64,000 nt of DNA from an uncultured Candidatus Saccharibacteria bacterium. GTDB taxonomy: Bacteria > Patescibacteriota > Minisyncoccia > Phycocordibacterales > UBA5272. Below, piece by piece: positions 15,300 through 56,858 of this stretch. The notes below the pieces were generated by a model. The model did not search any database. It saw nothing but the letters and a program-made list of their open reading frames with translations, and was not told where the DNA came from. Numbering within the stretch: position 1 is the first letter of the stretch; the number at the start of each line of letters is the position of its first letter. The DNA is taken from contig CAYWEW010000003.1 in assembly GCA_964457775.1 (NCBI GenBank), positions 30,776 through 94,775 of the forward strand. Direction: 5' to 3'. Made by a program: the position numbers and the translations under genes.

Positions 15300-15770
15300 T
15301 TGAGAAACAAATTTATGGAATATTTAACATTAGAAAAGAAAAATGAATTAGAAAATGAGCTTTTACAGCTCAAAAGTGTTCGTCGTAAGGAAATTGCAGA
15401 TTCTCTTGAATATGCAAAGTCTCTTGGTGATTTGTCAGAAAATGCTGAATATCATCAAGCTCGTGAAGACCAAGCTAATTGTGAGGATCGTATTTCTCAT
15501 ATTGAGCAAATTCTTAAGAATGCAGTTATTATGGAAACAGGTGTTAGTGGTGTTGTAAGTGTTGGTTCAACGGTTACAGTGTTAAAAAAAGGAAGTAAGG
15601 AAGAAAAGACTTTTGCTCTTGTTGGTAGTGAAGAAGCAGATTCTGTTTCTGGTAAAATTTCAAATGAGTCTCCGCTAGGGCAAGCATTACTTGGAAAGAA
15701 AAAAGGCGACAAAGTAATTGTTCACGCACCAAAAGGAGAAGTAGAATATTCAATTGTATCAACTGTTTAG
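15300..15770 (+). CDS. greA: transcription elongation factor GreA
   Basis: GreA N-terminal coiled coil LGDLSENAEYHxAREDQ and C-terminal FKBP-like domain. Confidence 0.9.
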   Translation: MRNKFMEYLTLEKKNELENELLQLKSVRRKEIADSLEYAKSLGDLSENAEYHQAREDQANCEDRISHIEQILKNAVIMETGVSGVVSVGSTVTVLKKGSKEEKTFALVGSEEADSVSGKISNESPLGQALLGKKKGDKVIVHAPKGEVEYSIVSTV

Positions 15771-15832
15771 TTCGTAGTTACTGGTTACTAGTTGGTGGTA
15801 AATACAAAAGCGACAACAAAGTTGTCGCTTTT
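15731..15832 (+). repeat. direct repeat copy 1 (greA 3' end + terminator)
   Basis: 81 nt identical to 17902-17982, plus a ~20-nt diverged extension. Confidence 0.85.
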
Positions 15833-15834
15833 TG
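15808..15834 (+). terminator. greA intrinsic terminator (agcgacaac-aaa-gttgtcgct + T5)
   Basis: Perfect 9-bp stem followed by a T-run. Confidence 0.7.
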
Positions 15835-15899
15835 TGTTTAGTTTTATTGAATAAGTTTTCCCAAGGATAATGTTACACTGTATGTGTAGTATATAATTA

Positions 15900-17840
15900 T
15901 TGTTTTATATTCTACTTAAATATATAACAAGTGTGTATTCTCAAATTTACATAATTCAGCGTCTCCTAAATATAGCTCTGCCTTTTTTTGCTCTAATATT
16001 GCTTGTTGCAATCATTTTTTTTATTTATAAACTTTTTACGACAACAGATGAAGTTCGGGCTATAAATATGAGACGGATGACATTTAGTATAGTATCCATA
16101 TTTCTTGTCGTTATTCTTTGGGTTGTAGTTACTTTTTTAGGTTCTTCTACATATTTATTTAATAATTTTACCCACCTCTTTAAGGCATCTATATCTAATG
16201 ATTTGCATGCAAATCCAAATTTAGGGGGTGGGCCACTTGTTGTTTCCTTGACTGCGCCGGATGAGGTTATGAGAAAAATGGAAAATTGTACATATAGTAT
16301 TGGTTGGTTCGGGTCAAGTGGTAATGGTCTTTCCGTTGATTGGGGAGATGGAAAATCTGAGCCTAATCCAAATTCAAATGAAGGTAATAATGGTAAAAGT
16401 TGTACAGAGGTAGTAAAGAAACATATATATACTGCACCTGGAAAGTATACGATTAAAGTCACTAGTTGGCATCCTGGTCCAACTGATGGCGCTGTTATAG
16501 ATTGGATAGGAAAAACAAATGTGGAAGTAACTGTAAAAGATAATATTACATCCTCCATTGAGATTTTATCTCCTTCAGATGGAGAAACTTATTTTTATCA
16601 AAGTGATCCAGTGATTACTTGGAAGGTTATTGCTGGGAAGAAACTTTCACTTGTTAGTGAATTATTAGATAAAAATGATAATGTAATTGTTTCTGAAAAA
16701 AAAGATAACATTGCATTTAGTGGCGAAGGTAGTACTAGGTTTATATTAAGAGGTAGAACATACGATAATTTTTTAAAAAATGGTGATATCGAGACTACGA
16801 CAAGAGTTCGTCTTTTTGATAATAATACTATTGTTGCAGAAAACAGAAGTAAAGTTTTTACTTTATCAGCAAGGCATGTCGACTCAATAAATGAAAAACT
16901 TATAATATCTTCTGTTTCCAGCACTAGTCCATTTAGCGTAAAGGCATCATTTTCTTATTTTAATGCAATATGTGTCTCAAGCGTACTTGATTGGGGGGAT
17001 GGGTCACCTTTAGTAGAAAATATTAAACAAGTTCAAAAATCATGCCCACTAGATGATGAAACTAAAACATTTGAACATGTGTATCAAAAAATAGGTAAAT
17101 ACAAGATTATTTTAAAAACAAACGAATTTGATTTTGATGATGTTAAATTAGTCGTCCCTTATTATTCTAAGACAATTGAAGTTTCAGATGGGGGCATAAT
17201 AATTCCAAAGGATAAAACAGTTCCAGAAGTAGAAGTAGTGATTCCTGTTGTGGTGCCAAGTATTAGTATTAAATATGTATATCCAGATTACCTTAAGTTG
17301 AGTTATGAGAATTTATCAGAGTCAACAGCTGAGCTAATTAGTGAAAAAACAGGAAAAGTCGTGCATAGTATTGGTGTTATTAAGGATATGAGTGGTTCAC
17401 AACGAGTATATTTAAAGTCTATATCTGCTTTAGGAAAAAATTTAGAAAATGGGTATTATTATGTGCGTACCGTATCTAATTCAACATTAAAGCAAGAGGT
17501 TGTTCGTAGTGATCGCTTTTATTTTCAGCCTAATATTAATAATCCAGCAACCTTCATGTACCCTCTAAAGGATATAATTATAAAAAAAGGAGAACCATTA
17601 AAAGTTGATTATAAAATTAATCAAAATGAACTGGACGGTGATCCACTTTCTATCACAATTAGTATTGTTGGTGATAATTCTGTGATTGGGGGAGGGTACG
17701 GTGAAAAAGCAGTAATTGGGGAACATTCTCATGAATGGATTATTGATGAGGTTGGTATATATCGTCCTTACATAAATGTACGGTTTAGAGAAATTTCATA
17801 TACATTTCCTGGAGCGCTTATTACTGTGGTTGGTAATTAA
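15900..17840 (+). CDS. membrane-anchored surface protein with two PKD-like domains
   Basis: VDWGDG...KHIYTAPGKYTIKV and LDWGDG...HVYQKIGKYKI match the PKD consensus WDFGDG..HxYxxxGxYxV. N-terminal hydrophobic segments. ORF-track start is TTG; ATG at 16068 (MRRMTF...) is a likely true start. Confidence 0.6.
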   Translation: MFYILLKYITSVYSQIYIIQRLLNIALPFFALILLVAIIFFIYKLFTTTDEVRAINMRRMTFSIVSIFLVVILWVVVTFLGSSTYLFNNFTHLFKASISNDLHANPNLGGGPLVVSLTAPDEVMRKMENCTYSIGWFGSSGNGLSVDWGDGKSEPNPNSNEGNNGKSCTEVVKKHIYTAPGKYTIKVTSWHPGPTDGAVIDWIGKTNVEVTVKDNITSSIEILSPSDGETYFYQSDPVITWKVIAGKKLSLVSELLDKNDNVIVSEKKDNIAFSGEGSTRFILRGRTYDNFLKNGDIETTTRVRLFDNNTIVAENRSKVFTLSARHVDSINEKLIISSVSSTSPFSVKASFSYFNAICVSSVLDWGDGSPLVENIKQVQKSCPLDDETKTFEHVYQKIGKYKIILKTNEFDFDDVKLVVPYYSKTIEVSDGGIIIPKDKTVPEVEVVIPVVVPSISIKYVYPDYLKLSYENLSESTAELISEKTGKVVHSIGVIKDMSGSQRVYLKSISALGKNLENGYYYVRTVSNSTLKQEVVRSDRFYFQPNINNPATFMYPLKDIIIKKGEPLKVDYKINQNELDGDPLSITISIVGDNSVIGGGYGEKAVIGEHSHEWIIDEVGIYRPYINVRFREISYTFPGALITVVGN

Positions 17841-17880: not shown

Positions 17881-17983
17881 GAAAAGGTGAAGTTGAAGAT
17901 ACAATTGTATCAACTGTTTAGTTCGTAGTTACTGGTTACTAGTTGGTGGTAAATACAAAAGCGACAACAAAGTTGTCGCTTTT
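17881..17983 (+). repeat. direct repeat copy 2 (degenerate greA tail ...KGEVEDTIVSTV* + terminator hairpin)
   Basis: Matches 15731-15832. Confidence 0.85.
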
Positions 17984-18080
17984 GTATTTTATATTTTAGT
18001 CGACTTAGTAATTGGTATCTGGTATTATTAATTGATATTAGTATGTATTAACTACTAACCAGTAACTATAAACTACCCAT

Positions 18081-19538
18081 ATGGCCTCCATCGAAGAACT
18101 TCGCACAGAAAGAATTAAAAAATTAGAGAAATTAAAAGCTCTTGGAATTTCTTCATATCCGAGTTCATCTTCTCGTACTCATGAATTAAAATATGTGGCG
18201 GATAATTTTACTTCACTTGAAAGTCATCAAGATTCAATTATTGTAAATGGCCGTGTTATGTCATCACGTGGACAAGGAGCTATTTGTTTCGTTGATTTGT
18301 ATGACGGAACAAATAGAATGCAAGTTGTTATTAAGTTACCAGAATCAACTGAAGAAGTGATGAATTTTTATCGTGACTACGTAGATATAGGAGACTTTGT
18401 AGAAGTAACTGGAAAAGTTTTTATTACAAAATCAGGTCAGCAAAGTATTCTTGTTAATAAAGTTTCCATGCTATCAAAAGCATTACTTCCACTTCCAGAT
18501 AAATTCCACGGACTTCAGGATGAAGAACTTCGTATGCGTGAAAGATATCTAGATATACTTACGAATCCTGAACTTAGGGAGTTATTAGAAAAGAAGACAA
18601 AATTTTGGGAGGTGACACGCTCATTCTTAAAAGAAAAGGGGTTCTTAGAAGTTGAAACACCAACTCTTGAAGTAACTACAGGAGGTGCAGAGGCTAGACC
18701 ATTTGCTACACATCATTATGATTTTGATTTGCCAGTATTTATGCGTATATCAGTTGGAGAACTTTGGCAGAAGAGATTAATGGCCTCTGGTATCCCGAAG
18801 ACTTTTGAAATAGGCCGTGTATATCGTAATGAAGGTTCATCGCCAGATCATCTCCAGGAATTCACTAACTGTGAATTTTATATGTCATATGCAAATTATG
18901 AAGATGGAATGAAGTTAACTCAAGAACTATATCGCAAATTAGCAGAAGATGTATTCGGTACGACAACATTTACAACACGTGGACACACATTTAATCTTGC
19001 TGATGAATGGACTAAAATTGACTATAGTGAAGAAATAAAACGTCAGACATCTATTGATATAAATACTGCAACCGATGATGAAATAAAAAACAAATTACAA
19101 GATTTGAAAGTGAAGTATGACGGTGTTAATCGTGAGCGATTAATTGATACACTTTGGAAGTATTGTCGTAAGAATATTACTGGTCCATCTTTTGTAATTA
19201 ATCATCCAATAATTATTGCTCCACTTGCAAAGAAGAATACTGATGGTAAAACTGTACAAATGTTCCAACCAGTTATCGCAGGAAGTGAAATTGGACGTGG
19301 CTACTCAGAACTTAATGACCCACTTGATCAAAGAGAGAGATTCGAAGTACAGCAGAAGTTATTAGCTGGAGGGGACGAAGAGGCGATGATGGCAGATTGG
19401 GAATTTGTGGATATGTTAGAACATGGTATGCCCCCTACATGTGGATTTGGTTTTGGCGAAAGATTGTTCGCATTTTTGGCAGATAAACCAGTTCGTGAAG
19501 TACAGACATTCCCACTTACAAGACCAAAAATAATTTAG
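18081..19538 (+). CDS. lysS: lysyl-tRNA synthetase, class II
   Basis: OB anticodon-binding domain plus class II motifs 1-3 (FxEVETP, RNEG, GxGxGxER). Confidence 0.95.
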   Translation: MASIEELRTERIKKLEKLKALGISSYPSSSSRTHELKYVADNFTSLESHQDSIIVNGRVMSSRGQGAICFVDLYDGTNRMQVVIKLPESTEEVMNFYRDYVDIGDFVEVTGKVFITKSGQQSILVNKVSMLSKALLPLPDKFHGLQDEELRMRERYLDILTNPELRELLEKKTKFWEVTRSFLKEKGFLEVETPTLEVTTGGAEARPFATHHYDFDLPVFMRISVGELWQKRLMASGIPKTFEIGRVYRNEGSSPDHLQEFTNCEFYMSYANYEDGMKLTQELYRKLAEDVFGTTTFTTRGHTFNLADEWTKIDYSEEIKRQTSIDINTATDDEIKNKLQDLKVKYDGVNRERLIDTLWKYCRKNITGPSFVINHPIIIAPLAKKNTDGKTVQMFQPVIAGSEIGRGYSELNDPLDQRERFEVQQKLLAGGDEEAMMADWEFVDMLEHGMPPTCGFGFGERLFAFLADKPVREVQTFPLTRPKII

Positions 19539-21842: not shown

Positions 21843-23586
21843 TAACTCTTTGGAATTATCAGACGAACAAAAAATGCGCTCAACAGATAGGGCGCAGTTC
21901 GTATTTATTTTGTGGTTAATTTTCGCATTTATCATTATTGCTCGCGCATTTTATATACAAGTAATACAGCATAATTATTATACCGATCTTGGTAACAAAC
22001 AGTATATTTCTTCTGTTCCAATTAATTTTGACAGAGGAACAATATTATTTTCACATTACAAAGGGACGCCAGTTCCTGCAGCACAACTTAGAACATCTTA
22101 CCGTGTAGCGCTAGATCCAACACAAATAAAAGATGCAGACTTGTTGTATGCGTCTATGTCAAAGTATATTCCATCACTTGATAAGACAATTTTCATCGAA
22201 AAGGCGACAAAGCAAAATGATCCATATGAAGAGATAGCAAAGGGTGTAACAGAAGACAAGGTAGTATTGCTGAAATTGTTGAAATTAAGAGGAGTGTCTT
22301 ATTTAAAAGATAATGAACGTTCATATCCTCAAGATAATATTGGCGCAAAAGTAGTTGGTTTCGTTGGAAGTGATGGCAAATATACAAAAGGTCAATATGG
22401 ACTTGAACGTTATTATGAAGATGTGTTAGGTAGAAATAGTAGTGAAAAAACCGTGAACTTTTTTGCTGAGTTATTTACTGATATTGAAAAAACAATTGTT
22501 TCCAATCGAGATAAAGAAGAGGGTGATATTATTTTAACAATTGACGCAGAAGCCCAAAGAGTTCTTCATAGTACACTCGTAGAAACAAAGGCAGAATGGA
22601 AGTCCGACGTTATTGGTGGAATTATTATGGACCCAAATACGGGAGCAATTATTGCTATGGAAGCATTACCTTCTTATAATCCAAATAATTTTAACGACGT
22701 AAAAGATTCATCTTTGTATATTAATCAAAATATTTCTGGTGTATATGAAATGGGAAGTATTATAAAACCAATTACCATGGCTGCAGCAATTGATTCTGGG
22801 GCAGTTAATGAAGCAAGTACAACATATAATGACACAGGCTTTCGCGATTTGAATGGATATAAAGTTAGTAACTTTGATGGTAAACCAAGAGGAAGAAATA
22901 CATCTATGCAAATGATTTTAGATAAATCATTAAACGTCGGTATTGTTTTTCTTGTTGAAAGACTCGGAGAAAAACGTTTCCAGGATTATTTTAAAAAGTT
23001 TGGTCTTGGACAAGAAACAGGTATTGATGTACCAGGGGAAGCGAGTGGTTTGACCAAAAACTTAGACAGTAAAGTTTTTGTTGATAGTGCGACCGCTGGA
23101 TTCGGGCAAGGGATAGCCATAACACCAATACAAACCATAAGAGCATTAGCTGCACTTGGAAATGGTGGTAAGTTAGTTTCGCCACATATAGTTGATAGTA
23201 TAGTTTACAAAAACGGTGATGTGAAAAAAATAACCGATGAAGGTTTTGAACAAGTTATTTCTAAAGAAACAAGTGAAAGAATCTCCCGTATGTTGGTACA
23301 CGTTGTGGATACATCTCTCAAAGATGGTAATTACAAAATGGATAGATATACAATTGCTGCCAAAACTGGAACAGCTCAGATGGTTAAGCCTGGCGCCGGA
23401 TATTATGAAGACAGATACCTTCACTCTTTCTTTGGATATTTCCCAGCATATGAACCAAAATATATTATTTTCCTTTTCCATACTTATCCAAAAGGGGCGA
23501 AGTATGCGTCCGCAACTTTAACGGATCCGTTTTTCAAGATAGTTAAGTTTCTTATATCCTATTACGAAGTCCCACCCGACCGTTAG
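21832..23586 (+). CDS. ftsI: peptidoglycan D,D-transpeptidase FtsI (class B PBP3)
   Basis: SxxK (SIIK), SN and KTGTAQ motifs; dcw cluster position. Confidence 0.85.
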   Translation: MHASNSLELSDEQKMRSTDRAQFVFILWLIFAFIIIARAFYIQVIQHNYYTDLGNKQYISSVPINFDRGTILFSHYKGTPVPAAQLRTSYRVALDPTQIKDADLLYASMSKYIPSLDKTIFIEKATKQNDPYEEIAKGVTEDKVVLLKLLKLRGVSYLKDNERSYPQDNIGAKVVGFVGSDGKYTKGQYGLERYYEDVLGRNSSEKTVNFFAELFTDIEKTIVSNRDKEEGDIILTIDAEAQRVLHSTLVETKAEWKSDVIGGIIMDPNTGAIIAMEALPSYNPNNFNDVKDSSLYINQNISGVYEMGSIIKPITMAAAIDSGAVNEASTTYNDTGFRDLNGYKVSNFDGKPRGRNTSMQMILDKSLNVGIVFLVERLGEKRFQDYFKKFGLGQETGIDVPGEASGLTKNLDSKVFVDSATAGFGQGIAITPIQTIRALAALGNGGKLVSPHIVDSIVYKNGDVKKITDEGFEQVISKETSERISRMLVHVVDTSLKDGNYKMDRYTIAAKTGTAQMVKPGAGYYEDRYLHSFFGYFPAYEPKYIIFLFHTYPKGAKYASATLTDPFFKIVKFLISYYEVPPDR

Positions 23587-23602
23587 AAGAAAATTACTTC
23601 AT

Positions 23603-23680
23603 CTACTTTGTCGCGAGGAGTTTTTTCTCGGTCAATGTACTATATGTACATTTCTCTCGAAAAAACTCCTCGCTTCGCGT
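23603..23680. repeat. nested palindromic element copy A (outer 14-bp stem around inner atgtac-tatat-gtacat)
   Basis: gcgaggagtttttt / aaaaaactcctcgc perfect inverted repeat; shares ctactttgtcg + tcaatgtacta(a/t)atgtacattt with 55958-56030. Confidence 0.7.
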
Positions 23681-23802
23681 ATATAAAGCAATTTTCTTCT
23701 AATGGTAAAGTGATGTGATCTAATTACAAGAAATATTATGCCTGTACTTTTTTATAAAATATGGTATAATTAGTAGTAATATTAATTACTCCTTATATAA
23801 AC

Positions 23803-24912
23803 ATGAAAAAAGCAGATCCAAAAAAAGAATATTCCAATTTTAAAGGAGCAGGGAAAAGAAACAATTTTGAAAGAGCTCCAAGGTCTGAAAAGGCAACACT
23901 ACGTAAGCCGTATGTAAACAAAAAATCAATTGCTTCATACGTAGATAAAGCTCCATACATAGCACGTACTGAAAAACCTGTTTATAAAGGAAAAGAATCT
24001 CGTTTATCAGGAACACGAACAAGAAATGAAACCAGAGTTTTTTCGGGCTACACACCGCGTACCTCACACGGAGAAAATTCTTCTCGTGTATCATATGCAT
24101 CAAAAGATACTGAAACAAAAAAACAAGTAGTTGTTCCAGATACCTCTTGGGGTGGTGTTGCAGATTGGTATAATAAACACTTGGAAAAAGGTGATGACAC
24201 TTATCATACGAAAGTAATATTCCCGAATATACTAAGGATGCTTGGTGATGTATCAGGAAAGAAAGTTCTTGATATGGCTTGTGGTCAAGGAATATTCGCA
24301 GAGCAATTGCGTGATAAAGGTGCATTTGTTACTGGGGTTGATATAGCCAAAGAACTTATAAAAATTGCTGAAGAAAAAAGTCAAAATATAAAAGAAAAAG
24401 GAACACACAAAGTTTCTTATCATGTTGCGTCAGCTGAAGATTTGTTTATGTTGAAAGATAAAAGTTTTGACGTTGTTGTTTGTATACTCGCTCTTCAGAA
24501 TATCGAAAATTTACAAAAGACAATTGCCGAAGCTAAGAGAGTTCTTGTAAATGATGGAAAATTTATTTTTGTACTTAATCATCCAAGTTTTAGAAATGCC
24601 AAACAAACTTATTGGGGATATAATGAAAAGGACGGTATTCAATATAGACGTGTAGACGAATATATGTCTGAATCACATGTAAGAATTGATATGACACCAG
24701 GAAGTGTAAAAGATAAAAAGTTCACTGTCTCATTTCATAGACCACTTCAAGTTTATATAAAAGCACTCTCAAAATCAGGTCTCGTTGTTGCTCGTCTTGA
24801 AGAATGGGTAAGTCATCGCGAAAGTGAACGAGGTCCTCGTAAATCTGCAGAAGATAAGGCGCGCAAGGAAATACCTTTGTTTATGTGTATTGAAAGTACA
24901 GTTATTAAATAA
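23803..24912 (+). CDS. class I SAM-dependent methyltransferase with ~110-aa basic N-terminal extension
   Basis: Motif I VLDMACGQGIF; N-terminus K/R/S/T-rich and ribosomal-protein-like. Confidence 0.7.
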   Translation: MKKADPKKEYSNFKGAGKRNNFERAPRSEKATLRKPYVNKKSIASYVDKAPYIARTEKPVYKGKESRLSGTRTRNETRVFSGYTPRTSHGENSSRVSYASKDTETKKQVVVPDTSWGGVADWYNKHLEKGDDTYHTKVIFPNILRMLGDVSGKKVLDMACGQGIFAEQLRDKGAFVTGVDIAKELIKIAEEKSQNIKEKGTHKVSYHVASAEDLFMLKDKSFDVVVCILALQNIENLQKTIAEAKRVLVNDGKFIFVLNHPSFRNAKQTYWGYNEKDGIQYRRVDEYMSESHVRIDMTPGSVKDKKFTVSFHRPLQVYIKALSKSGLVVARLEEWVSHRESERGPRKSAEDKARKEIPLFMCIESTVIK

Positions 24913-28880: not shown

Positions 28881-28905
28881 ATTAGTTTATTACAATAATT
28901 ATTTT

Positions 28906-28916
28906 TGTGTTAGAAT
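28906..28916 (+). promoter_or_regulatory. extended -10 TGTGTTAGAAT upstream of ychF
   Basis: Same 11-mer as before mreB and dnaJ. Confidence 0.45.
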
Positions 28917-28962
28917 ACGATGCATTAATAATTCTAAAACTATTAACTAGTAACTATTAACT

Positions 28963-30060
28963 ATGAGTTTATCTATCGGAATTGTTGGACTTCCAAACGT
29001 CGGCAAGTCAACATTATTTAATGCAATAACAAATAAATCAGTTCCAGCTGATAATTATCCTTTTTGTACTATTGATCCATCAGTAGGAGTTGTTCCTGTG
29101 CCTGATGAGAGACTCGCAGTGTTATCAAAAATTTCTGGTTCTAGAAAATTAATTCCTGCCATTGTAGAATTCGTAGATATTGCAGGACTTGTAAAGGGGG
29201 CATCAGCTGGTGAAGGGCTTGGTAATGCATTTCTTTCACATATTCGGGAGACGGATGCAATTGCAGAAGTTGTGCGTATCTATGAGAATAGTGATTTGAT
29301 ACACGTAGAAGGAACTGTTGACCCACTTCGTGATATTGAGATTATCAATATGGAATTAATTCTTGCTGATATGCAAACAGTTGAGAAGCGTAGTCAAACC
29401 ATTGGGCGCGATGTGAAGCGTGGTGATAAAGATGCGATTAAGCTCGCTGGACTACTTGAAGTATTAAAGAAAAATTTGGAGGAAGAAAAACTAGCGAATA
29501 CTATTTCTTTTGATACTGAAGAGACCAAACTCGTACGTGACTTGCATCTGATTACTATGAAGCCATTTCTTTATGTTTTGAATAAGCAATCTGGTGGAAA
29601 AAATCTAGACGAAATGAACGATGAGAGGTTCACTAAGTTAATAAATTATTTCAAAGAAAATAATTTTAAATATGTAATAGTTGATGCCAAGATAGAAGAT
29701 GAACTCAAAGAATTCGAAGGTGAGGAAAAAGAAATGATGCGTAACGAAATGAATGCACATGACAGTGGTGTAGATGGCCTAATCAAAGCTGGATATGACT
29801 TGCTCGGACTCGAGACATATCTTACAACTGGTGAAATGGAAACACGCGCATGGACAATTAAGAAAGGAAGCACGGCACCACGTGCGGCAGCTGCGATACA
29901 CTCAGATTTTGAAACAAAGTTTATTCGTGCGGAAGTTGTTGCATATGATGACTTAGTCAAAGCCGGAAATTATGGAGATGCAAAGGCTCGGGGAGTATTA
30001 AGAACAGAAGGTAAGGAATATATAGTGAAAGATGGGGATGTCATTGAATTTAAGATTTAA
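28963..30060 (+). CDS. ychF: ribosome-binding ATPase YchF/Ola1
   Basis: GIVGLPNVGKST, NKxD-like LNKQS, C-terminal TGS domain. Confidence 0.95.
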   Translation: MSLSIGIVGLPNVGKSTLFNAITNKSVPADNYPFCTIDPSVGVVPVPDERLAVLSKISGSRKLIPAIVEFVDIAGLVKGASAGEGLGNAFLSHIRETDAIAEVVRIYENSDLIHVEGTVDPLRDIEIINMELILADMQTVEKRSQTIGRDVKRGDKDAIKLAGLLEVLKKNLEEEKLANTISFDTEETKLVRDLHLITMKPFLYVLNKQSGGKNLDEMNDERFTKLINYFKENNFKYVIVDAKIEDELKEFEGEEKEMMRNEMNAHDSGVDGLIKAGYDLLGLETYLTTGEMETRAWTIKKGSTAPRAAAAIHSDFETKFIRAEVVAYDDLVKAGNYGDAKARGVLRTEGKEYIVKDGDVIEFKI

Positions 30061-32517: not shown

Positions 32518-33804
32518 ATGAAGAACCTACCTCAACAACTAAAGGGCATAGCAATAGGAACCATTTTCTTTATTGGTCTATTATATGTAAGTGCATGGAC
32601 TGGAGCTCCAACAGGAACACCACCAGCAAACAACGTAGATGCCCCTGTAAATGTTAGTATTAACTCGCAATATAAAGATGGAGCATTAGGTGTTGGAGGT
32701 TTGATTCGTGGTTATGCAGACGCAATATTTGATGGAGGTGTAAAAATAGGAACAACAACAGACGTTTGTAGTTCAGCATTAGGTGGAACATTGCGCTATA
32801 ACAGCAGTGCTAGATGTGTAGAATTTTGTGATGAGTCATCATGGAAATGTACAAATCAGACAGCTACACCACCAACATGTACTTCGTTTACTTATTCCAG
32901 CTGGTCCCCGTCAGTTTGTGTTAATGGTACACAAACAAGAACTGTAACAACTTCATTACCATCTGGCTGTGTTGGAGGAACGTCATCAACAAGTCAAAGC
33001 TGTACCGTCCCAGATTTTTCTTATACTGCAACTATTTCTGACACACCAAATTATAATTTAAGAGATGTTGTTTTGGCTGCTGGATGGGATGGATCTAAAA
33101 AAGTGGTTGCAACTATTACTATAAACGGTGACGTATATTCAACTTCAAATGCTATTCCTGCCTTCGATACTGGAGATCTACCTGCAGGTTCAAGTGTTAC
33201 AATTATAAATAATGGTAATATTATCGGTAAGGGTGGTAATGGTGGAGTAGGGTATGGATCAAGTTTATGGGCAGGCTTTGGATACGCCTATACAGTTGGT
33301 ACCCCAGGTGAAGATGGTGGTCCAGCACTAAAAGTAAGAGCTATTACAGTTATTAGGAATTATGGTGTTATAGCAGGAGGAGGAGGAGGTGGTGGTGGTG
33401 GTGGATACGCATATAATAATTATTATTATCAGAACTATGGTAGTGCTGGTGGCGGTGGAGGTGGTGGTGGACAGGGATACAACGCAGGTAGTGCTGGTGG
33501 TGGTGGTATTTTAAGTGGATACAGTTCAGCGAGTGGTAATTCTGGTAGCTCTGGAACATTTAGTTCTGCTGGATTGGGTGCTACAGCTGTAAATTCTTCT
33601 AATTCACAAGGAGACGGTGCAGCTGTATATGGAAGTGCTGGAGGAAATGGTGGAACACTTGGCAATCCAGGACAAGTAGGAGGTAGTGGATCTGCTCAGT
33701 ATGCTAGTGGTGGATATCCTGGAGGACTGGCAGGGAATTCAGTTATAGGTAATTCATATGTATCTTGGGAAGTTGTTGGAACTAGATTGGGTCCTGTTAA
33801 TTAA
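32518..33804 (+). CDS. N-terminally anchored Gly-rich extracellular protein (cassette A, paralog of 41344..42315)
   Basis: Hydrophobic anchor then AWTGAPTGTPPANNVDAPVNV...IGTTT, Cys-rich middle, (G)n/GGxGG C-terminus. Confidence 0.6.
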   Translation: MKNLPQQLKGIAIGTIFFIGLLYVSAWTGAPTGTPPANNVDAPVNVSINSQYKDGALGVGGLIRGYADAIFDGGVKIGTTTDVCSSALGGTLRYNSSARCVEFCDESSWKCTNQTATPPTCTSFTYSSWSPSVCVNGTQTRTVTTSLPSGCVGGTSSTSQSCTVPDFSYTATISDTPNYNLRDVVLAAGWDGSKKVVATITINGDVYSTSNAIPAFDTGDLPAGSSVTIINNGNIIGKGGNGGVGYGSSLWAGFGYAYTVGTPGEDGGPALKVRAITVIRNYGVIAGGGGGGGGGGYAYNNYYYQNYGSAGGGGGGGGQGYNAGSAGGGGILSGYSSASGNSGSSGTFSSAGLGATAVNSSNSQGDGAAVYGSAGGNGGTLGNPGQVGGSGSAQYASGGYPGGLAGNSVIGNSYVSWEVVGTRLGPVN

Positions 33805-33840
33805 ATTTATGAATTTTTTTTACTTTAAACTATATATTAT

Positions 33841-34437
33841 ATGTTAGGTTATCCAATAAAAACAATCCTCGTATCTATTCTTATTTTTATGTTAGGAGTT
33901 GTTTCTAGTGTTTTTTTAACTATTTTATATTTCAAGATTAGTGGAAAAAATCCGGAAATGAATTATGCAAATACTAATACAAATAGTGTAAATGTAGACA
34001 CAAATAAACCTATTGTTAAAAATGAAGAAACAAAGCAGAATTTTGAGATGAATTATATAGTTGGAGAAATAATTTCTTTAAGTGGAAATAAATTAAACAT
34101 TAAAATTAATCCAGTATTAAATCCTATTTTTAAAGATAAAGGGGAAAGTGTTGTGGAGGTAACAGTAACAGATATGACCAAATTTGTGTCTATGGTACAA
34201 AAAGACGCGACAATTTTTAAAAAGGAGTTACTAGATTTTCAAAAAATACCCATTGCAAATAGAGATTTTTCTATGTCACCTCAACCCTTCTTAGAAAAGG
34301 AAACATCTCGCGACTTGTTTACTATAGGTAAAATGGTTGTAGTAAAATCAAAGGAAAAAATATCTAGTTCTACCACATCAATAAAAGCAGAATCAGTTGG
34401 TATAGCACCAGAGATACCTAAAGCTACATCACGATAA
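33841..34437 (+). CDS. membrane-anchored beta-rich partner protein (cassette A, paralog of 42350..42934)
   Basis: N-terminal TM; shared blocks with paralog (Y(I/F)VG(E/D)..S.SG, ..KD...F.KE...(F/Y).(K/N)IPI..R). Confidence 0.55.
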   Translation: MLGYPIKTILVSILIFMLGVVSSVFLTILYFKISGKNPEMNYANTNTNSVNVDTNKPIVKNEETKQNFEMNYIVGEIISLSGNKLNIKINPVLNPIFKDKGESVVEVTVTDMTKFVSMVQKDATIFKKELLDFQKIPIANRDFSMSPQPFLEKETSRDLFTIGKMVVVKSKEKISSSTTSIKAESVGIAPEIPKATSR

Positions 34438-37323: not shown

Positions 37324-37374
37324 TACCGTATTTGATTAAACAGTAACTAGTAAAAACAACTAACAACCACCATT

Positions 37375-40837: not shown

Positions 40838-41245
40838 ATGGCTACAGAAACAAAACAGAGATACATAGAAGCAGTAGGACGTCGTAAGACAGCGATTGCT
40901 CGTGTTCGTATTACACCTGCAACAAAGACTTCTTTCGTTGTTAACGATAAGGATGTTAAGGAATATTTCGTAACAGAAGAACTTCAAATGATTGCTCAAG
41001 AAGCGATTAGTAAATCAGAAGTTGGTGAAAAGTTCTCAGTATCTATTCACGTATTAGGTGGTGGTATTCATGCACAAGCAGAAGCTGTACGTCATGGACT
41101 ATCTCGTACGCTCGTTCTTCGTGATGAAAACATCAAGAACACTCTTAAGAAACTTGGATTTCTAAAGCGTGACTCACGTCAAGTTGAAAGAAAGAAATTC
41201 GGTCTTAAGAAAGCACGTAAAGCTCCAACTTGGTCAAAGCGTTAA
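40838..41245 (+). CDS. rpsI: 30S ribosomal protein S9
   Basis: C-terminal ...GLKKARKAPTWSKR. Confidence 0.9.
   Translation: MATETKQRYIEAVGRRKTAIARVRITPATKTSFVVNDKDVKEYFVTEELQMIAQEAISKSEVGEKFSVSIHVLGGGIHAQAEAVRHGLSRTLVLRDENIKNTLKKLGFLKRDSRQVERKKFGLKKARKAPTWSKR
41219..41245 (+). repeat. direct repeat copy 1 (rpsI last 9 codons incl. stop)
   Basis: aaagctccaacttggtcaaagcgttaa; 26/27 identical to 42965-42991. Confidence 0.8.
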
Positions 41246-41252
41246 TAATAAT

Positions 41253-41281
41253 AAACTGCACATATGTGCAGTTTATTTTTT
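41253..41281 (+). terminator. rpsI intrinsic terminator (ctgcacat/atgtgcag palindrome + T-run)
   Basis: Perfect 8-bp palindromic stem followed by tttattttt. Confidence 0.65.
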
Positions 41282-41343
41282 CAAGTAAGTCAAATGTGGA
41301 TAAGTTACATAATGGGTATCAGTTTTGTGTTACAGTGTCCTAT

Positions 41344-42315
41344 ATGAACAGTGGATCAACAATAAATACAAGAACTCAAGATTCTTTCACTAAGGCATCT
41401 TTGATAATGATATTATCTATAATACTTGGTACTGTAACTTATGCATGGGTAGGTCCAACAAGTATGGCTCCTAACGGAAATGTACCTCCACCGATTAATG
41501 TTGGTTCAGTTCTGCAAGAAAAGTTGGGAGGACTTAAAATATTTGGTGACTTAACTGTTGGAACGACAACTAGTCCAAATGCAACTTTAACTGTCCATGG
41601 GAAAATATATTCTGAATCTACATTAAGTTCTGATACTGCACATACAGTTGTCACTAAGGATTTTATCCCAAGGTGTTCTTCAGGTAAGTTCTTAACAAGT
41701 GATGGGAATCAGCTGTTGTGCAAAACAGCCACAGTTCCTCCTTCCTGCGGAACAGAGTCAAATGTTGGTCCAAACACAGTTGTTACGTTTACATCTTCAT
41801 GTGTGTTCGTTGTTCCTGACGGAGTTAATTCTGTTAATTTGAAAGTGGTTGGAGGTGGAGGTGGAGGTGGAGGAGGGTCTGATTTTGGTGGTGCTAGTAG
41901 TGGGGGACAGAGTGGAACACAGTCATCGTTCTCAACAGTTGTAGCTTTACCTGGTGGTGGTGGAGGTGGAGCAGGGATGCTTCAATATAATTACGTGTGT
42001 TATGGAGGCGCAGCAGGTGCTGGATACCCTTCTGGAACAGAAGGGGTAACTTGTGGATATGGATCGGTTACTGGCGCTTCCAATGGTTCTGGATACGGTT
42101 CAGGTGGGGATGGTAAAACCTCTGCTATTGATGGTGGTGGAGGAGGAGGTAGTGGTGGTGCTGGACAAGTTGTTACACAGACATTAAGTGTCACTTCAGG
42201 TCAAAACATATCTGTTGTAGTTGGGGGTGGAGGATCACGAGGATCTAGTACATATGGTAATGTTGGTACTTCTGGTACAAACGGTGTTGTTACTGCTACT
42301 TATACTACACCATAA
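41344..42315 (+). CDS. N-terminally anchored Gly-rich extracellular protein (cassette B)
   Basis: AWVGPTSMAPNGNVPPPINV...VGTTT N-terminus parallels cassette A; poly-Gly blocks; start at ATG 41344 (ORF-track 41230 overlaps rpsI). Confidence 0.6.
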   Translation: MNSGSTINTRTQDSFTKASLIMILSIILGTVTYAWVGPTSMAPNGNVPPPINVGSVLQEKLGGLKIFGDLTVGTTTSPNATLTVHGKIYSESTLSSDTAHTVVTKDFIPRCSSGKFLTSDGNQLLCKTATVPPSCGTESNVGPNTVVTFTSSCVFVVPDGVNSVNLKVVGGGGGGGGGSDFGGASSGGQSGTQSSFSTVVALPGGGGGGAGMLQYNYVCYGGAAGAGYPSGTEGVTCGYGSVTGASNGSGYGSGGDGKTSAIDGGGGGGSGGAGQVVTQTLSVTSGQNISVVVGGGGSRGSSTYGNVGTSGTNGVVTATYTTP

Positions 42316-42349
42316 TCCAAAATATAATGGAAAAGTTCTTCTAAAATTT

Positions 42350-42934
42350 ATGAGTCCGAATTTAAAAAATATTATTATATATATTCTCATCTTAATTATA
42401 GGAGTTTTTATTGGTGGTTACTCAGTGAATTTATATTTCAAGACCAAAATTCAGAAAATATTTATGAGTAATGTTACTTCTAGCGAATCAGTAAATAATG
42501 ATGTATTTGATAACAATGCTCAAGCATCTAACTCAAAAATTTTAAAAACAAAGTATTTTGTTGGAGATGTTGTTTCTTTTTCTGGTGATACAATTATTAT
42601 AGACTCTGAAAATATATTGTATCCGTTGTCCGTTTCTAAAGAAAAGCACCAAGTAACCGTCAAAATAGATAATAATACAAAATTTATTAGTACCACCTTA
42701 AAAGATAAGGCAATTTTTGAAAAGGAAATGCGTGATTATAAAAATATTCCAATTGACAAAAGAGCGCAGATTACATCACCAAAATCTTTAATTGAAAAAG
42801 AAATACCTCGTAATTCAATTAGTGTTGGTAAAAAAATAGTCATTAAATCAAAAGAAGAGTTAGTTTCTACTACTAAATATTTTGTAGCTGAATCGATTAG
42901 TTTAACTTATGAATTGTCTAAAGCCACAAATTAA
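42350..42934 (+). CDS. membrane-anchored beta-rich partner protein (cassette B)
   Basis: Paralog of 33841..34437; start at ATG 42350 (MSPNLKN...). Confidence 0.55.
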   Translation: MSPNLKNIIIYILILIIGVFIGGYSVNLYFKTKIQKIFMSNVTSSESVNNDVFDNNAQASNSKILKTKYFVGDVVSFSGDTIIIDSENILYPLSVSKEKHQVTVKIDNNTKFISTTLKDKAIFEKEMRDYKNIPIDKRAQITSPKSLIEKEIPRNSISVGKKIVIKSKEELVSTTKYFVAESISLTYELSKATN

Positions 42935-42964
42935 ATACCGGGGACTCTTTTAAGGAAACCTCTT

Positions 42965-42991
42965 AAAGCTCCAACCTGGTCAAAGCGTTAA
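42965..42991 (+). repeat. direct repeat copy 2 (rpsI 3' end duplicate)
   Basis: aaagctccaacctggtcaaagcgttaa followed by its own hairpin terminator. Confidence 0.8.
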
Positions 42992-42995
42992 AAAC

Positions 42996-43022
42996 AAAAA
43001 CCTGTCATTTGACAGGTTTTTT
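42996..43022. terminator. intrinsic terminator (cctgtca-ttt-tgacagg flanked by A5/T6)
   Basis: Hairpin with flanking A/T runs on both strands. Confidence 0.6.
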
Positions 43023-43939: not shown

Positions 43940-44743
43940 GTGCTTGGATATCTTCTTGAAAAAAGACCACAAGAAATTTATAGACTTGAGTTAAATGAAA
44001 ATGGTTTTGTTTTTAAAATTCGAAATGCATTTTTTGAGTACTTACTCAATTGTATTAAAAAAGAGGAAGACAAAATTCATTTAATAAAACTTGCAAATGA
44101 TGTAGTTGAAGGCGTAGTCATTTTCTACATAAATTTGCCATTTATCAGATATCCAAATTTTTCACACAAATCAACAGATTGGAAGAGTTTGTGCAAATGT
44201 GCAGAAGATATGAGTTTTCTATTTCGTCTGCTTAATTATCCACCAACAGACTTGGATTTGGTAGGTAATCACTCATACTGTTTAAGTGAAAAGACACAGC
44301 TCATGACTATTTCTACTAGTCATTATAGTAATGACGGTTTTCACTCTTCTCCGATTGAAGTTGGGTTTAGTAGAAAGGCTTGTGAACTTCTTGTTACTTC
44401 ATTTAAACAGGATACACACTTTAAAGAATGTGAGGAGTCTGCGCATAGTGTGTACTTTGGTTTATCCTCCAAAACAAAAAGTGAATTTGAGAGAAGTAAA
44501 AAGACTTTCCTAAAATATTCCGGAGGATTCATGGGGATAACTGCCATGGTAAGAGGCGGAGGCACTCCACACTTCGTTGTTCCAGGAAACTGTGCTTGTT
44601 TGGGTGCAAATCCAGATAGGTTCAAGTTTGATAGGGATACGCATTCTCACAACATGGATTCTTCATTACAACAGATGAGTATGCTCGCATCTTTGGTTAC
44701 GTTCTGGAATAAGGTTCTAATTCCATTACAGGACGGAAGCTAA
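43940..44743 (+). CDS. hypothetical Cys/His-rich protein (267 aa), SD-bearing, GTG start
   Basis: AAGGAGAAACAAA then GTG; no recognised family. Confidence 0.5.
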   Translation: MLGYLLEKRPQEIYRLELNENGFVFKIRNAFFEYLLNCIKKEEDKIHLIKLANDVVEGVVIFYINLPFIRYPNFSHKSTDWKSLCKCAEDMSFLFRLLNYPPTDLDLVGNHSYCLSEKTQLMTISTSHYSNDGFHSSPIEVGFSRKACELLVTSFKQDTHFKECEESAHSVYFGLSSKTKSEFERSKKTFLKYSGGFMGITAMVRGGGTPHFVVPGNCACLGANPDRFKFDRDTHSHNMDSSLQQMSMLASLVTFWNKVLIPLQDGS

Positions 44744-55957: not shown

Positions 55958-56030
55958 CTACTTTGTCGAACATAAGTTTTTATCGATCAATGTACTAAAT
56001 GTACATTTTCCTCTAAAAATTTTCATTCCC
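55958..56030. repeat. nested palindromic element copy B (degenerate outer stem; inner atgtac-taaat-gtacat)
   Basis: Shares ctactttgtcg and tcaatgtacta(a)atgtacattt with copy A; 17 nt after the GH18 stop. Confidence 0.65.
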
Positions 56031-56126
56031 CTAGTATCTGTAATAATTTTGTCTATTCAAATATTTTAAAAAATCACTAATAATTATCAACTAGTAACCA
56101 GTAACTATTAACTATATACTAGTTGT

Positions 56127-56858
56127 ATGGAATTCACAGTAAAATTAGACCGATATGAGGGTCCATATACAAAACTTCTTGAATTGATTGAACAGAGGAA
56201 ACTTTCGATTACTGAAATATCACTAGTCTCTGTTGCTGATGATTATATTTCATATATAAAAACTCTTGAACAGAAAAACTTGGTGGATATTTCACAATTT
56301 ATTGTTGTTGCCTCTACTCTAATTTTGATGAAGGTAAAATCTTTGCTCCCGGGAATTGTATATACCGAAGAAGAAGAAAAACAGGTGCATGATTTGGAAA
56401 GAAAGTTGGAGCTTTATGCTATCTTAACAGATGCATGTCAAAAAGTAGCTTCATTCTATAACAAAGGACCTCTTCATTCTCGTGAATATGTTAAATACAA
56501 AGGTCAACCAGTTTTTGTGCCAGATAGTCGTGTTACAAAAGAAATGCTTCAATCTATCGCATCGCTTACGCTTATGTCTTTTGTTACACCAAAGCAACTA
56601 GTGAAAGTTGCTGTAGAACAAGCGTTGCGTATAGAAAATGTAATTGAGAGTCTTCTGGAGAGAGTGCGAACTATACCTCAGGTAACATTACAAAGTTTAG
56701 CTAATGGTGCAGGGACAATAGAAGAGCGCAAGAAAATACTTATTGTTAATTTTATTGCAATTTTGGAACTACTGCGCACTGGTTCAATTAATGTTGAACA
56801 ACATGCAGACGGGGGAGAAATTAGCATAGTCTCAAGTCTTAAAGTCAAAAGTCCTTAA
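56127..56858 (+). CDS. scpA: segregation and condensation protein A
   Basis: ScpA N-terminal LxxYEGPxxxLLELIxxxKL. Confidence 0.85.
   Translation: MEFTVKLDRYEGPYTKLLELIEQRKLSITEISLVSVADDYISYIKTLEQKNLVDISQFIVVASTLILMKVKSLLPGIVYTEEEEKQVHDLERKLELYAILTDACQKVASFYNKGPLHSREYVKYKGQPVFVPDSRVTKEMLQSIASLTLMSFVTPKQLVKVAVEQALRIENVIESLLERVRTIPQVTLQSLANGAGTIEERKKILIVNFIAILELLRTGSINVEQHADGGEISIVSSLKVKSP

Follow-up and report, generated by a model that had tools for sequence, protein, structure and literature searches.

Tandem arrays of heptanucleotide units are known from bacteria, and to our knowledge no function has been found for such heptameric repeats since 1990. Here, arrays of this kind are described for a stretch of 64,000 nucleotides of contig CAYWEW010000003.1 (positions 30,776 to 94,775, forward strand; this whole stretch is referred to as the window, and its numbering is used throughout), where they are found directly before the start codons of scpA, lysS and ychF and, in the opposite orientation, after the stop codon of greA. 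The cyanobacterial STRR units described by Mazel et al. in 1990 reportedly are CCCCAGT, TTGGTCA and CAACAGT. The STRR sequences are the three tandem heptanucleotides found in Calothrix in 1990 (PMC4692102). Heptameric repeats are over-represented among the simple sequence repeats (SSRs) of bacteria, and slippage related to the polymerase footprint has been proposed as the origin of the period of 7, as far as the work of Mrazek (2007) is conveyed by PMC4692102. The arrays of Xanthomonas and Nostoc, with the units GGGAATC / GGGGAYT, are intergenic, consist mostly of four units and occur in nearby inverted pairs (Rehm et al. 2015, PMC4692102). Their position is kept between related species while their sequence is variable, and the G-rich strand is found on the coding strand downstream of open reading frames (ORFs) and the C-rich strand upstream (PMC4692102). 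No function was found for these arrays, for which an explanation by G-quadruplexes (G4) has been proposed (PMC4692102).

The arrays of the window agree with the STRR, Xanthomonas and Nostoc arrays in the 7-nt unit, the number of about four units, the intergenic location, the close inverted pairs, the kept position and an identical orientation rule. The form NNNNAGT is common to the units AACTAGT and AACCAGT of this genome and the STRR units CCCCAGT and CAACAGT. Unlike the arrays of Xanthomonas and Nostoc, those described here are AT-rich, occur in a host with a small genome that belongs to the candidate phyla radiation (CPR) and abut the starts of genes without a Shine-Dalgarno (SD) sequence. 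AT-rich arrays are unable to form G4 structures, and therefore the G4 explanation is not general. It is highly probable that the motif is an STRR-like heptameric array; the feature is new to this lineage, and the class of repeats to which it belongs is already known and unexplained.

Leaders that promote initiation by other means than an SD provide a further comparison. The omega leader of tobacco mosaic virus (TMV) is a CAA-rich, G-poor, unstructured translational enhancer with ACAAUUAC direct repeats, and we know of no 7-nt register in it. The arrays share with it the character of a repeated A/C/U-rich, G-poor leader immediately before the AUG, but the likeness goes no further, the TMV omega leader being, unlike the arrays, of viral/eukaryotic origin. 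In Bacteroidia, whose genes lack SD sequences, initiation depends on a weak structure, on A residues upstream and on a scarcity of additional AUGs (Baez et al. 2019, PMC6847099). Heptad leaders that are poor in G would supply these properties. The lineage studied here likewise barely uses SD sequences, and its AUG-adjacent leaders are A-rich, mostly weakly structured and poor in alternative starts. A tandem periodicity is not described for the Bacteroidia, and, unlike there, the A at -3 is not conserved in the window, where T is found at -1 in 69% of the genes, and C is enriched at -5..-2 in the relatives.

The motif and its copies in the window

The sequence-only reading of the window had pointed out that a 19-mer of the scpA leader recurs in both greA-tail repeats and has close variants before lysS, ychF and rpsM. 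The exact 19-mer, AACTAGTAACCAGTAACTA, is found at 56089-56107 (+), 15775-15793 (-) and 17926-17944 (-), which confirms the identity, with the minus-strand coordinates given earlier being off by one base; the gene identities assigned to scpA, ychF, lysS, greA and rpsM all hold. A copy with one mismatch is located in the lysS leader, at 18050-18068 (+), and copies with two mismatches are located in the ychF leader, at 28938/28945 (+). With up to three mismatches allowed, there are 7 matches, as compared with 0.04 expected from 100 dinucleotide-preserving shuffles of the window (largest count, 1), and the motif is clearly non-random. Both minus-strand copies are inside one 115-nt direct repeat (91% identical), and therefore these two are not independent and count as a single event. 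There are five copies of the core TAACNAGTAAC in the window, and three of these are on the sense strand and at most 40 nt 5' of a start codon (p = 1e-4). The word CTAG is not avoided in the window (146 observed, 118 expected from a Markov model), and the motif is therefore not an island of a rare word.

When analyzed with Tandem Repeats Finder (TRF), the region shows period 7 at 28938-28964 (3.9 copies), 56076-56115 (5.7 copies), 15775-15793 and 17926-17944, and a scan for self-similarity at lag 7 also marks the scpA, lysS, ychF and greA-tail sites. The motif is a short tandem heptanucleotide array, with the family unit AACYAnT and four to five units. This tandem 7-nt periodicity, and with it the link to the heptameric repeats of bacteria, had been overlooked in the sequence-only reading. 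The arrays in the leaders of scpA, lysS and ychF end 0-3 nt 5' of the ATG, and the four spacers concerned are as follows.

56089-56123 (+), scpA leader array: AACTAGT AACCAGT AACTATT AACTATA TACTAGT, then TGT and the ATG at 56127
18050-18077 (+), lysS leader array: AACTACT AACCAGT AACTATA AACTACC, then CAT and the ATG at 18081
28938-28965 (+), ychF leader array: AACTATT AACTAGT AACTATT AACTATG, the final unit including the ATG at 28963 (90% matches in TRF)
37341-37374 (+), rpmJ-rpsM spacer: CAGTAAC TAGTAAA AACAACT AACAACC ACCATT, a loose A/C-rich, G-poor stretch and a weak relative of the arrays

The close variants noted before lysS and ychF are members of the family; the spacer before rpsM is a loose A/C-rich relative in which no array is called by TRF or by the lag-7 scan. 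The unit order AACTAGT, AACCAGT, AACTAnn, AACTAnn is common to three dispersed arrays of this genome. In the window, no known RNA family (Rfam, gathering thresholds) and no tRNA (ARAGORN) is detected.

The sequence available for the same contig beyond the window comprises 7.7 kb upstream (L205) and ~1 kb downstream. An array of the same family is present 7.4 kb 5' of the window start, at 314-368 of L205 on the minus strand and directly after a terminator, with the units AACTAAC AACCAGT (AAGCAGT)x4 AACTACT; its perfect units suggest a recent expansion.

Heptad arrays in related genomes

The sample of relatives consists of 80 loci, labelled by L-numbers and collected via lysS, which together with the window amount to 751 kb; an array is called where a segment has at least 15 of 21 self-matches at the given lag. 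At lag 7, 56 intergenic and 9 coding arrays are found, whereas at lags 5-13 the number of intergenic arrays is 0-10, with a mean of 5.6. Intergenic arrays that are specific for period 7 and for the strand are found throughout this Paceibacteria group. Their position is kept at the lysS leaders and greA trailers of the 80 relatives, while the sequence and the number of the units vary. The lysS leader of L010, for example, has the units TCTAAAA TCTAATC TCTAAAA TCTACTT, followed by TCTACCCCT-ATG, and that of L018 has ACTAACC ACTAGCA ACTAGTC ACTAACC; the units are AACTGTA AACTAAG in L021 and GAAATTT in L051. The heptads TCTAAAA, ACTAACC, GAAATTT, ATTGGAA and CAGATAT are found between and within genomes, with several families being present within L029 and within L075. 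The orthologous lysS leaders nevertheless share the 3' boundary CTAYCCC(T)-ATG, with which many of them end, despite the turnover of the heptads. In the orthologous leaders of relatives, where the motif position was to be compared according to the sequence-only reading, heptad arrays thus recur directly 5' of the lysS ATG, with other units.

An SD sequence precedes lysS in none of the 43 close genomes, of which 15 have a heptad leader and 18 a leaderless promoter at this gene; in 36 more distant genomes, lysS is for the most part coupled to the greA stop codon (19) or leaderless (11). With respect to all arrays, 22 of the 56 end at most 15 nt from an ATG, where 15% is expected (p = 6e-6). Perfect runs are seen in L059, with (CTAATCT)x4, and in the L205 array described above, and from these we infer an origin by slippage.

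Orientation of the arrays with respect to transcription

The orientation of the arrays is tied to the ends of genes. In 17 of 22 start-proximal arrays (at most 15 nt from the ATG), C outnumbers G on the sense strand, and in 10 of 14 stop-proximal arrays, which begin with a stop codon or shortly behind one, G outnumbers C, the latter arrays being of the 'TAG-N4' type and usually being followed by a terminator hairpin. On the mRNA, A/C-rich, G-poor arrays therefore abut starts, and the complementary U/G-rich UAG-N4 arrays follow stops, before the terminator. This rule is also seen in an independent test, in which metagenomes were scanned for AACTANTAACYAGTAACTA, giving more than 119 contigs of 24-74% GC and 97 usable sites. 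An ORF start is found at most 40 nt downstream of 28 sites in the AACTA orientation and of 7 in the reverse orientation, and the stop of a long ORF is found upstream of 29 sites in the reverse orientation as compared with 14. On these unrelated contigs, an SD-like motif precedes 4 of 28 genes that have an array before them and 54 of 163 neighbours (p = 0.048). A strand rule that is tied to transcription points to a constraint at the RNA level (or a transcription-coupled one) and makes a symmetric DNA operator less likely.

Stops in all three frames are present in 59% of the start-proximal arrays, as compared with 17% of mononucleotide shuffles. A role as three-frame stop arrays was considered and rejected: the property is a by-product, estimated at ~45% for any AT-rich 7-periodic sequence, and the arrays of L035 are free of stops.

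Arrays of the form AACTAnT are seen in many unrelated metagenome contigs (L085-L203, GC 0.24-0.74), such as L123, L137, L168 and L194. In a group of contigs of ~50% GC, a recurrent hairpin, GTTACTAGA...TCTAGTAAC, is found immediately 5' of the array, and in L087 one gene has a sense array at its 5' end and a complementary array at its 3' end.

Promoters and leaders

The arrays before lysS are predicted to belong to the 5' leader, since the conserved promoter of this gene, which in relatives has the form TCGACT-17-TGnTATnAT, is located 5' of them. The promoters concerned are listed below.

18000-18028 (+), predicted lysS promoter: TCGACT-17-TG-TATTAT, conserved in relatives, with a predicted leader of ~45 nt that includes the array
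28889-28916 (+), ychF promoter: ATTACA-16-TGT-TAGAAT, with a predicted leader of ~40 nt
56056-56084 (+), candidate scpA promoter: TTCAAA-17-AATAAT, with an alternative at 56020-56047

In the relatives, the spacing between the -10 box and the lysS array is variable, from 12 to 31 nt, whereas the distance between the array and the ATG is fixed. The leaders of ychF (-2.9 kcal/mol, z +0.86), lysS (z +0.57) and rpsM (z +1.21) are unstructured when compared with shuffles. The scpA leader has a hairpin of -11.1 kcal/mol (z -2.2), which arises because ACTAGT is self-complementary. Between the lysS -10 box and the array there is a conserved stretch, TATATGTATAGTATTTGTATT, which is identical in L029, L044 and L045 and whose counterpart in the window is TAATTGATATTAGTATGTATT, at 18029-18049.

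Host lineage and translation signals

Judged from its sequence, the host is a Paceibacteria (CPR) bacterium, as the LysRS relatives (63-82% identity) are all from metagenome-assembled genomes of Patescibacteria/Paceibacteria, labelled Nomura-, Yonath-, Taylor- or Zambryskiibacteria. Of the 64 genes in the window, 6 are preceded by an SD-like motif at the proper distance, and all four leaders for which its absence had been claimed (scpA, lysS, ychF and rpsM) indeed lack it. A leaderless-type arrangement, in which a -10 box has its end 5-11 nt 5' of the ATG, is found for 24 of the 64 genes (~38%). The rarity of the SD in the window fits with published work on the Parcubacteria, about half of which have no detectable anti-SD (PMC9297842). 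No 16S rRNA was found in the window or in any of the more than 200 fetched loci, and no CPR-specific leader motif was found in the literature.

With respect to other signals of the same kind, an extended -10 box, TGTGTTAGAAT, recurs in the window, for example upstream of 11499, 28963, 47521 and 52932. Strong SD sequences are seen almost only at orphan ORFs without a Pfam family, at 43940, 51046, 61896 (-), 25918 (-), 48752 and 30092 (-), three of these strong-SD orphan genes having AAGGAGAAAC in common, and mraZ (20062) is the sole annotated gene of the window with an SD-like motif.

The greA tail and its duplication

The array after greA is the reverse complement of the leader arrays; its first unit starts with the stop codon of greA, and 4 nt separate its last unit from the terminator hairpin. 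It is present twice, as shown by the following features.

15768-15802 (+), greA trailer array, copy 1: TAGTTCG TAGTTAC TGGTTAC TAGTTGG TGGTAAA
15806-15842 (+), intrinsic terminator hairpin and T-tract after greA, copy 1
17919-17953 (+), greA-tail array, copy 2: part of the second, partial copy of greA (its 3' fragment), 3' of the 2.15-kb insertion and 105 nt 5' of the lysS array
17951-17998 (+), intrinsic terminator hairpin (18 pairs) and T-tract, copy 2
15731-15845 and 17882-17996 (+), 115-nt direct repeat: the last ~40 nt of greA, the array and the terminator, flanking the 2.15-kb insertion

The 2.15-kb insertion encodes a 646-aa ORF (15900-17840), for which there is a weak PKD match only. 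A TAG-type array between the greA stop codon and the terminator is also found in relatives without the insertion (L005, L010, L021, L023 and L029), and so the array is a normal part of the greA-lysS spacer that has been copied together with the greA tail. An attachment site of the insertion was considered as the identity of the motif and rejected, as the empty sites of relatives carry the array and a second gene-tail duplication is without the motif.

This second duplication, 41209-41258 / 42955-43004, comprises 50 nt (84% identical) from the end of the gene at 40838-41245. It flanks an insertion with glycine-rich ORFs (41230-42315 and 42221-42934), which have paralogues in the GP38-like/Gly-rich pair at 32518-34437 (repeat families D1, D2, D4 and D11). 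The two tail duplications suggest a cassette family whose members insert at the end of a gene and leave its tail duplicated.

Complementarity between leaders and trailers

The scpA leader, 40 kb away, and the greA-tail array are complementary over 27 nt (93%), and for the lysS leader the complementarity to this array extends over 26 nt (88%). The predicted duplexes with the greA tail have energies of -43.3 kcal/mol for scpA, -34.7 for ychF and -32.8 for lysS, as compared with a median of -11.7 for 73 leaders; the rpsM leader has -22.5, and no other site of the window comes near the energies of the greA-tail duplexes. Such complementarity between the greA-tail array and the lysS leader of the same species is found in the window and in L005, L008, L010, L011, L013, L021 and L023, with scores of 9-19 as compared with a 99th percentile of 10 for cross-species pairs, the heptads differing between species. 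In minimum free energy (MFE) folds, the greA-tail and lysS arrays pair around the terminator and the promoter, in the window between copy 2 and 18050-18075; in L029, L031, L039 and L045, by contrast, the stem of the terminator is lengthened directly by the inverted arrays. The mismatches of 12 inverted array pairs are of the G.U type in 11 cases, of the A.C type in 11 and of other types in 30; this lack of a wobble bias gives no sign of selection on an RNA helix. The complementarity within species resembles covariation, but this is weakened by the absent wobble bias and by a partner array that is gained or lost among close relatives. A leader and a trailer are expected to be complementary whenever their arrays are of one heptad family in opposite orientations, as produced by the strand rule. 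A candidate internal promoter for a greA-tail small RNA (sRNA), with TAGAAT at 15741-15746, was rejected, since relatives do not conserve this box, which stems from conserved V-E-Y codons.

Discussion

The reading that is preferred here, tentatively and at a little less than an even chance, is that the heptad arrays are born by slippage and retained as leaders for SD-independent initiation. Replication slippage would create the arrays and turn them over, and such an origin would account for species-specific heptads at kept positions. The arrays before lysS, ychF and scpA would be retained for what they do as RNA: forming the final ~30 nt of the 5' leader, they would provide a weakly structured, start-codon-free and stop-rich landing zone for SD-independent initiation in a host that may otherwise depend on leaderless mRNAs. 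The greA-tail pair would be the ordinary post-stop array of greA, doubled by the 2.15-kb insertion. The functional part of this reading, in which start-adjacent arrays are kept as unstructured, start-codon-free leaders, is argued from position and composition only, and is held somewhat more loosely than the reading as a whole. Among the roles proposed in the sequence-only reading, that of a translation-initiation enhancer is plausible and preferred, on circumstantial grounds: the adjacency to the ATG, the poverty in G, the lack of structure in three of four leaders, the SD-poor lineage and the lysS orthologues, which have either a heptad leader or a leaderless promoter.

Several observations weigh against this reading. 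When lysS, the gene used for the collection, is left out, the start-proximal excess is modest (12 of 46, p = 0.03), and many arrays are located away from starts, namely after terminators, upstream of -35 boxes and after stops, so that a role as leader cannot account for the whole class, nor for the period of 7, which is accounted for solely by the mutational hypothesis. The poverty in G and the avoidance of start codons are no greater than predicted from base composition. The scpA array is identical in a strain of 99.3% identity, without a change in copy number; its hairpin takes in part of the AUG, and a TATACT box at 56115-56120, within the array region and 6 nt 5' of the ATG, could make scpA leaderless.

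It is possible, although rather doubtful, that the arrays are neutral or tolerated heptameric microsatellites, which reflect a slippage bias of the polymerase and obey the strand rule since the reverse orientation, being G-rich, structure-prone and containing TTG/GTG, would harm leaders. This is in agreement with the abundance of heptameric SSRs in many bacteria and the footprint proposal, in so far as PMC4692102 relates them from Mrazek 2007, with the lack of a function in Xanthomonas and Nostoc despite reporter and transcriptome work (PMC4692102), with the quick turnover of heptads between species and the several intergenic positions that are occupied, and with start-codon counts that are explained by composition alone. 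However, the position at the lysS leader is kept across many species together with the shared boundary before the ATG, the arrays are enriched beside starts, and the same unit order in three dispersed arrays is unexpected under independent slippage. Regulation by antisense pairing, in which the UAG-N4 array of the greA 3' untranslated region (3'UTR) binds the lysS, scpA and ychF leaders and blocks their start regions, is a live but secondary hypothesis and is regarded as unlikely. The array could act within the greA mRNA as such, within a 3'UTR-derived sRNA with its 3' end at the terminator, or, in cis, on transcripts that read through, and the pairing could be opened when greA is translated as far as its stop codon. 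In enterobacteria, CpxQ and DapZ are sRNAs that derive from 3'UTRs and pair with the ribosome-binding regions of several mRNAs; the greA tail is similar in that a single-stranded seed directly 5' of a gene-end terminator is complementary to the start regions of three other genes, whereas its complementarity is far longer (26-27 nt) and has no wobble or compensatory signal. The length of the complementarity, the duplex energies far outside the distribution of the 73 leaders, the sRNA-like anatomy with a strong terminator hairpin and U-tract after the array, and the MFE pairing and within-species complementarity, the latter in eight species, are points in its favour. However, no wobble bias is seen, complementarity is automatic for any inverted copy of one repeat family, part of the greA-tail array is taken up by a local hairpin, no partner array is found near scpA or ychF, and the partner is labile, as L045 has the leader family of L010 without the partner.

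The preferred reading of slippage-born, retained leaders also has to be compared with recognition of the arrays by proteins. An RNA-binding protein that reads the 7-nt register, either through the oligonucleotide-binding (OB) folds or cold-shock domains of bS1 or cold-shock proteins (Csp) or as a HutP-like oligomer on UAG-N4, is considered improbable. Cold-shock domains cover 6-7 nt, and HutP binds UAG units spaced by 4 nt beside a terminator, the stop-proximal arrays being similar to these (UAG-N4)3 sites in having UAG spaced by 4 nt before the terminator. Such a reader would account for the period of 7 and the usual four to five units, and strand specificity fits with reading of RNA. The bS1 of CPR bacteria carries three to four S1 domains (PMC9297842). 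The heptads, however, vary so widely between and within genomes that no single sequence-specific reader fits. Even less probable is an operator on double-stranded DNA, to which a regulator of the ribbon-helix-helix (RHH) type would bind cooperatively and thereby control lysS, ychF and scpA. The operators of the omega repressor (plasmid pSM19035) consist of 7-bp heptads, which may be direct or inverted, and the arrays are similar to the omega operators in their 7-unit register and in having direct and inverted arrays near promoters; arrays are present on both sides of the lysS promoter in L028, L045, L013 and L029, and near-identical sequences occur at three to four loci of this genome. Unlike omega operators, the arrays have a strand bias that follows transcription, a diversity of heptads, with several families in one genome (L029, L075), and an anchoring to the ATG or the stop codon and not to the -35/-10 boxes, and the same heptads are found in contigs of 24-74% GC, all of which disfavours the operator of a global regulator that had been proposed. 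Neither an RHH nor a HutP-like protein was identified, the Pfam scan covering 20 proteins of the window. Finally, the proposal that the motif is the core of an attachment or recombination site of the insertions is rejected with near certainty: the motif is indeed present in both copies of the 115-nt duplication around the 2.15-kb insertion, whereas the relatives without an insertion have an equivalent array after greA, the second duplication lacks it, and no insertion is found beside the copies in the ychF and scpA leaders.

Other features of the window

Nested inverted repeats are present at 23579-23706, in the spacer between a gene ending at 23586 and a gene starting at 23803, where an inner hairpin (23613-23673, 28 nt, 82%) is located inside a 28-nt pair of 86% identity (23579/23679); a complex terminator or a structured RNA may be encoded here. 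The word GATC occurs at about half of its Markov expectation in the window (80 observed, 158 expected), and TCGA is likewise low (96 and 141), which hints at restriction-modification pressure.

Implications

The arrays link the class of heptameric repeats with the start codons of genes that lack an SD, in a lineage rich in leaderless-type promoters, and they offer two hypotheses, a leader function at the RNA level and an antisense pairing between leaders and trailers. For the annotation of CPR genomes, motifs of this kind are to be treated as repeat arrays and not as operators or att sites. A bolder proposal, which is judged slightly less likely than antisense regulation taken by itself, is that the arrays are a dedicated, lineage-spanning element for SD-independent recruitment of ribosomes in a 7-nt register, read for example by the three to four OB folds of the CPR bS1, with the UAG-N4 post-stop arrays as antagonists and the greA 3'UTR co-regulating lysS, scpA and ychF by masking their leaders. 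If true, this would be the first function for a heptameric-repeat puzzle that is 35 years old, and it would account for the abundance of such arrays in lineages with weak SD usage, such as the CPR, the cyanobacteria and possibly the Bacteroidota.

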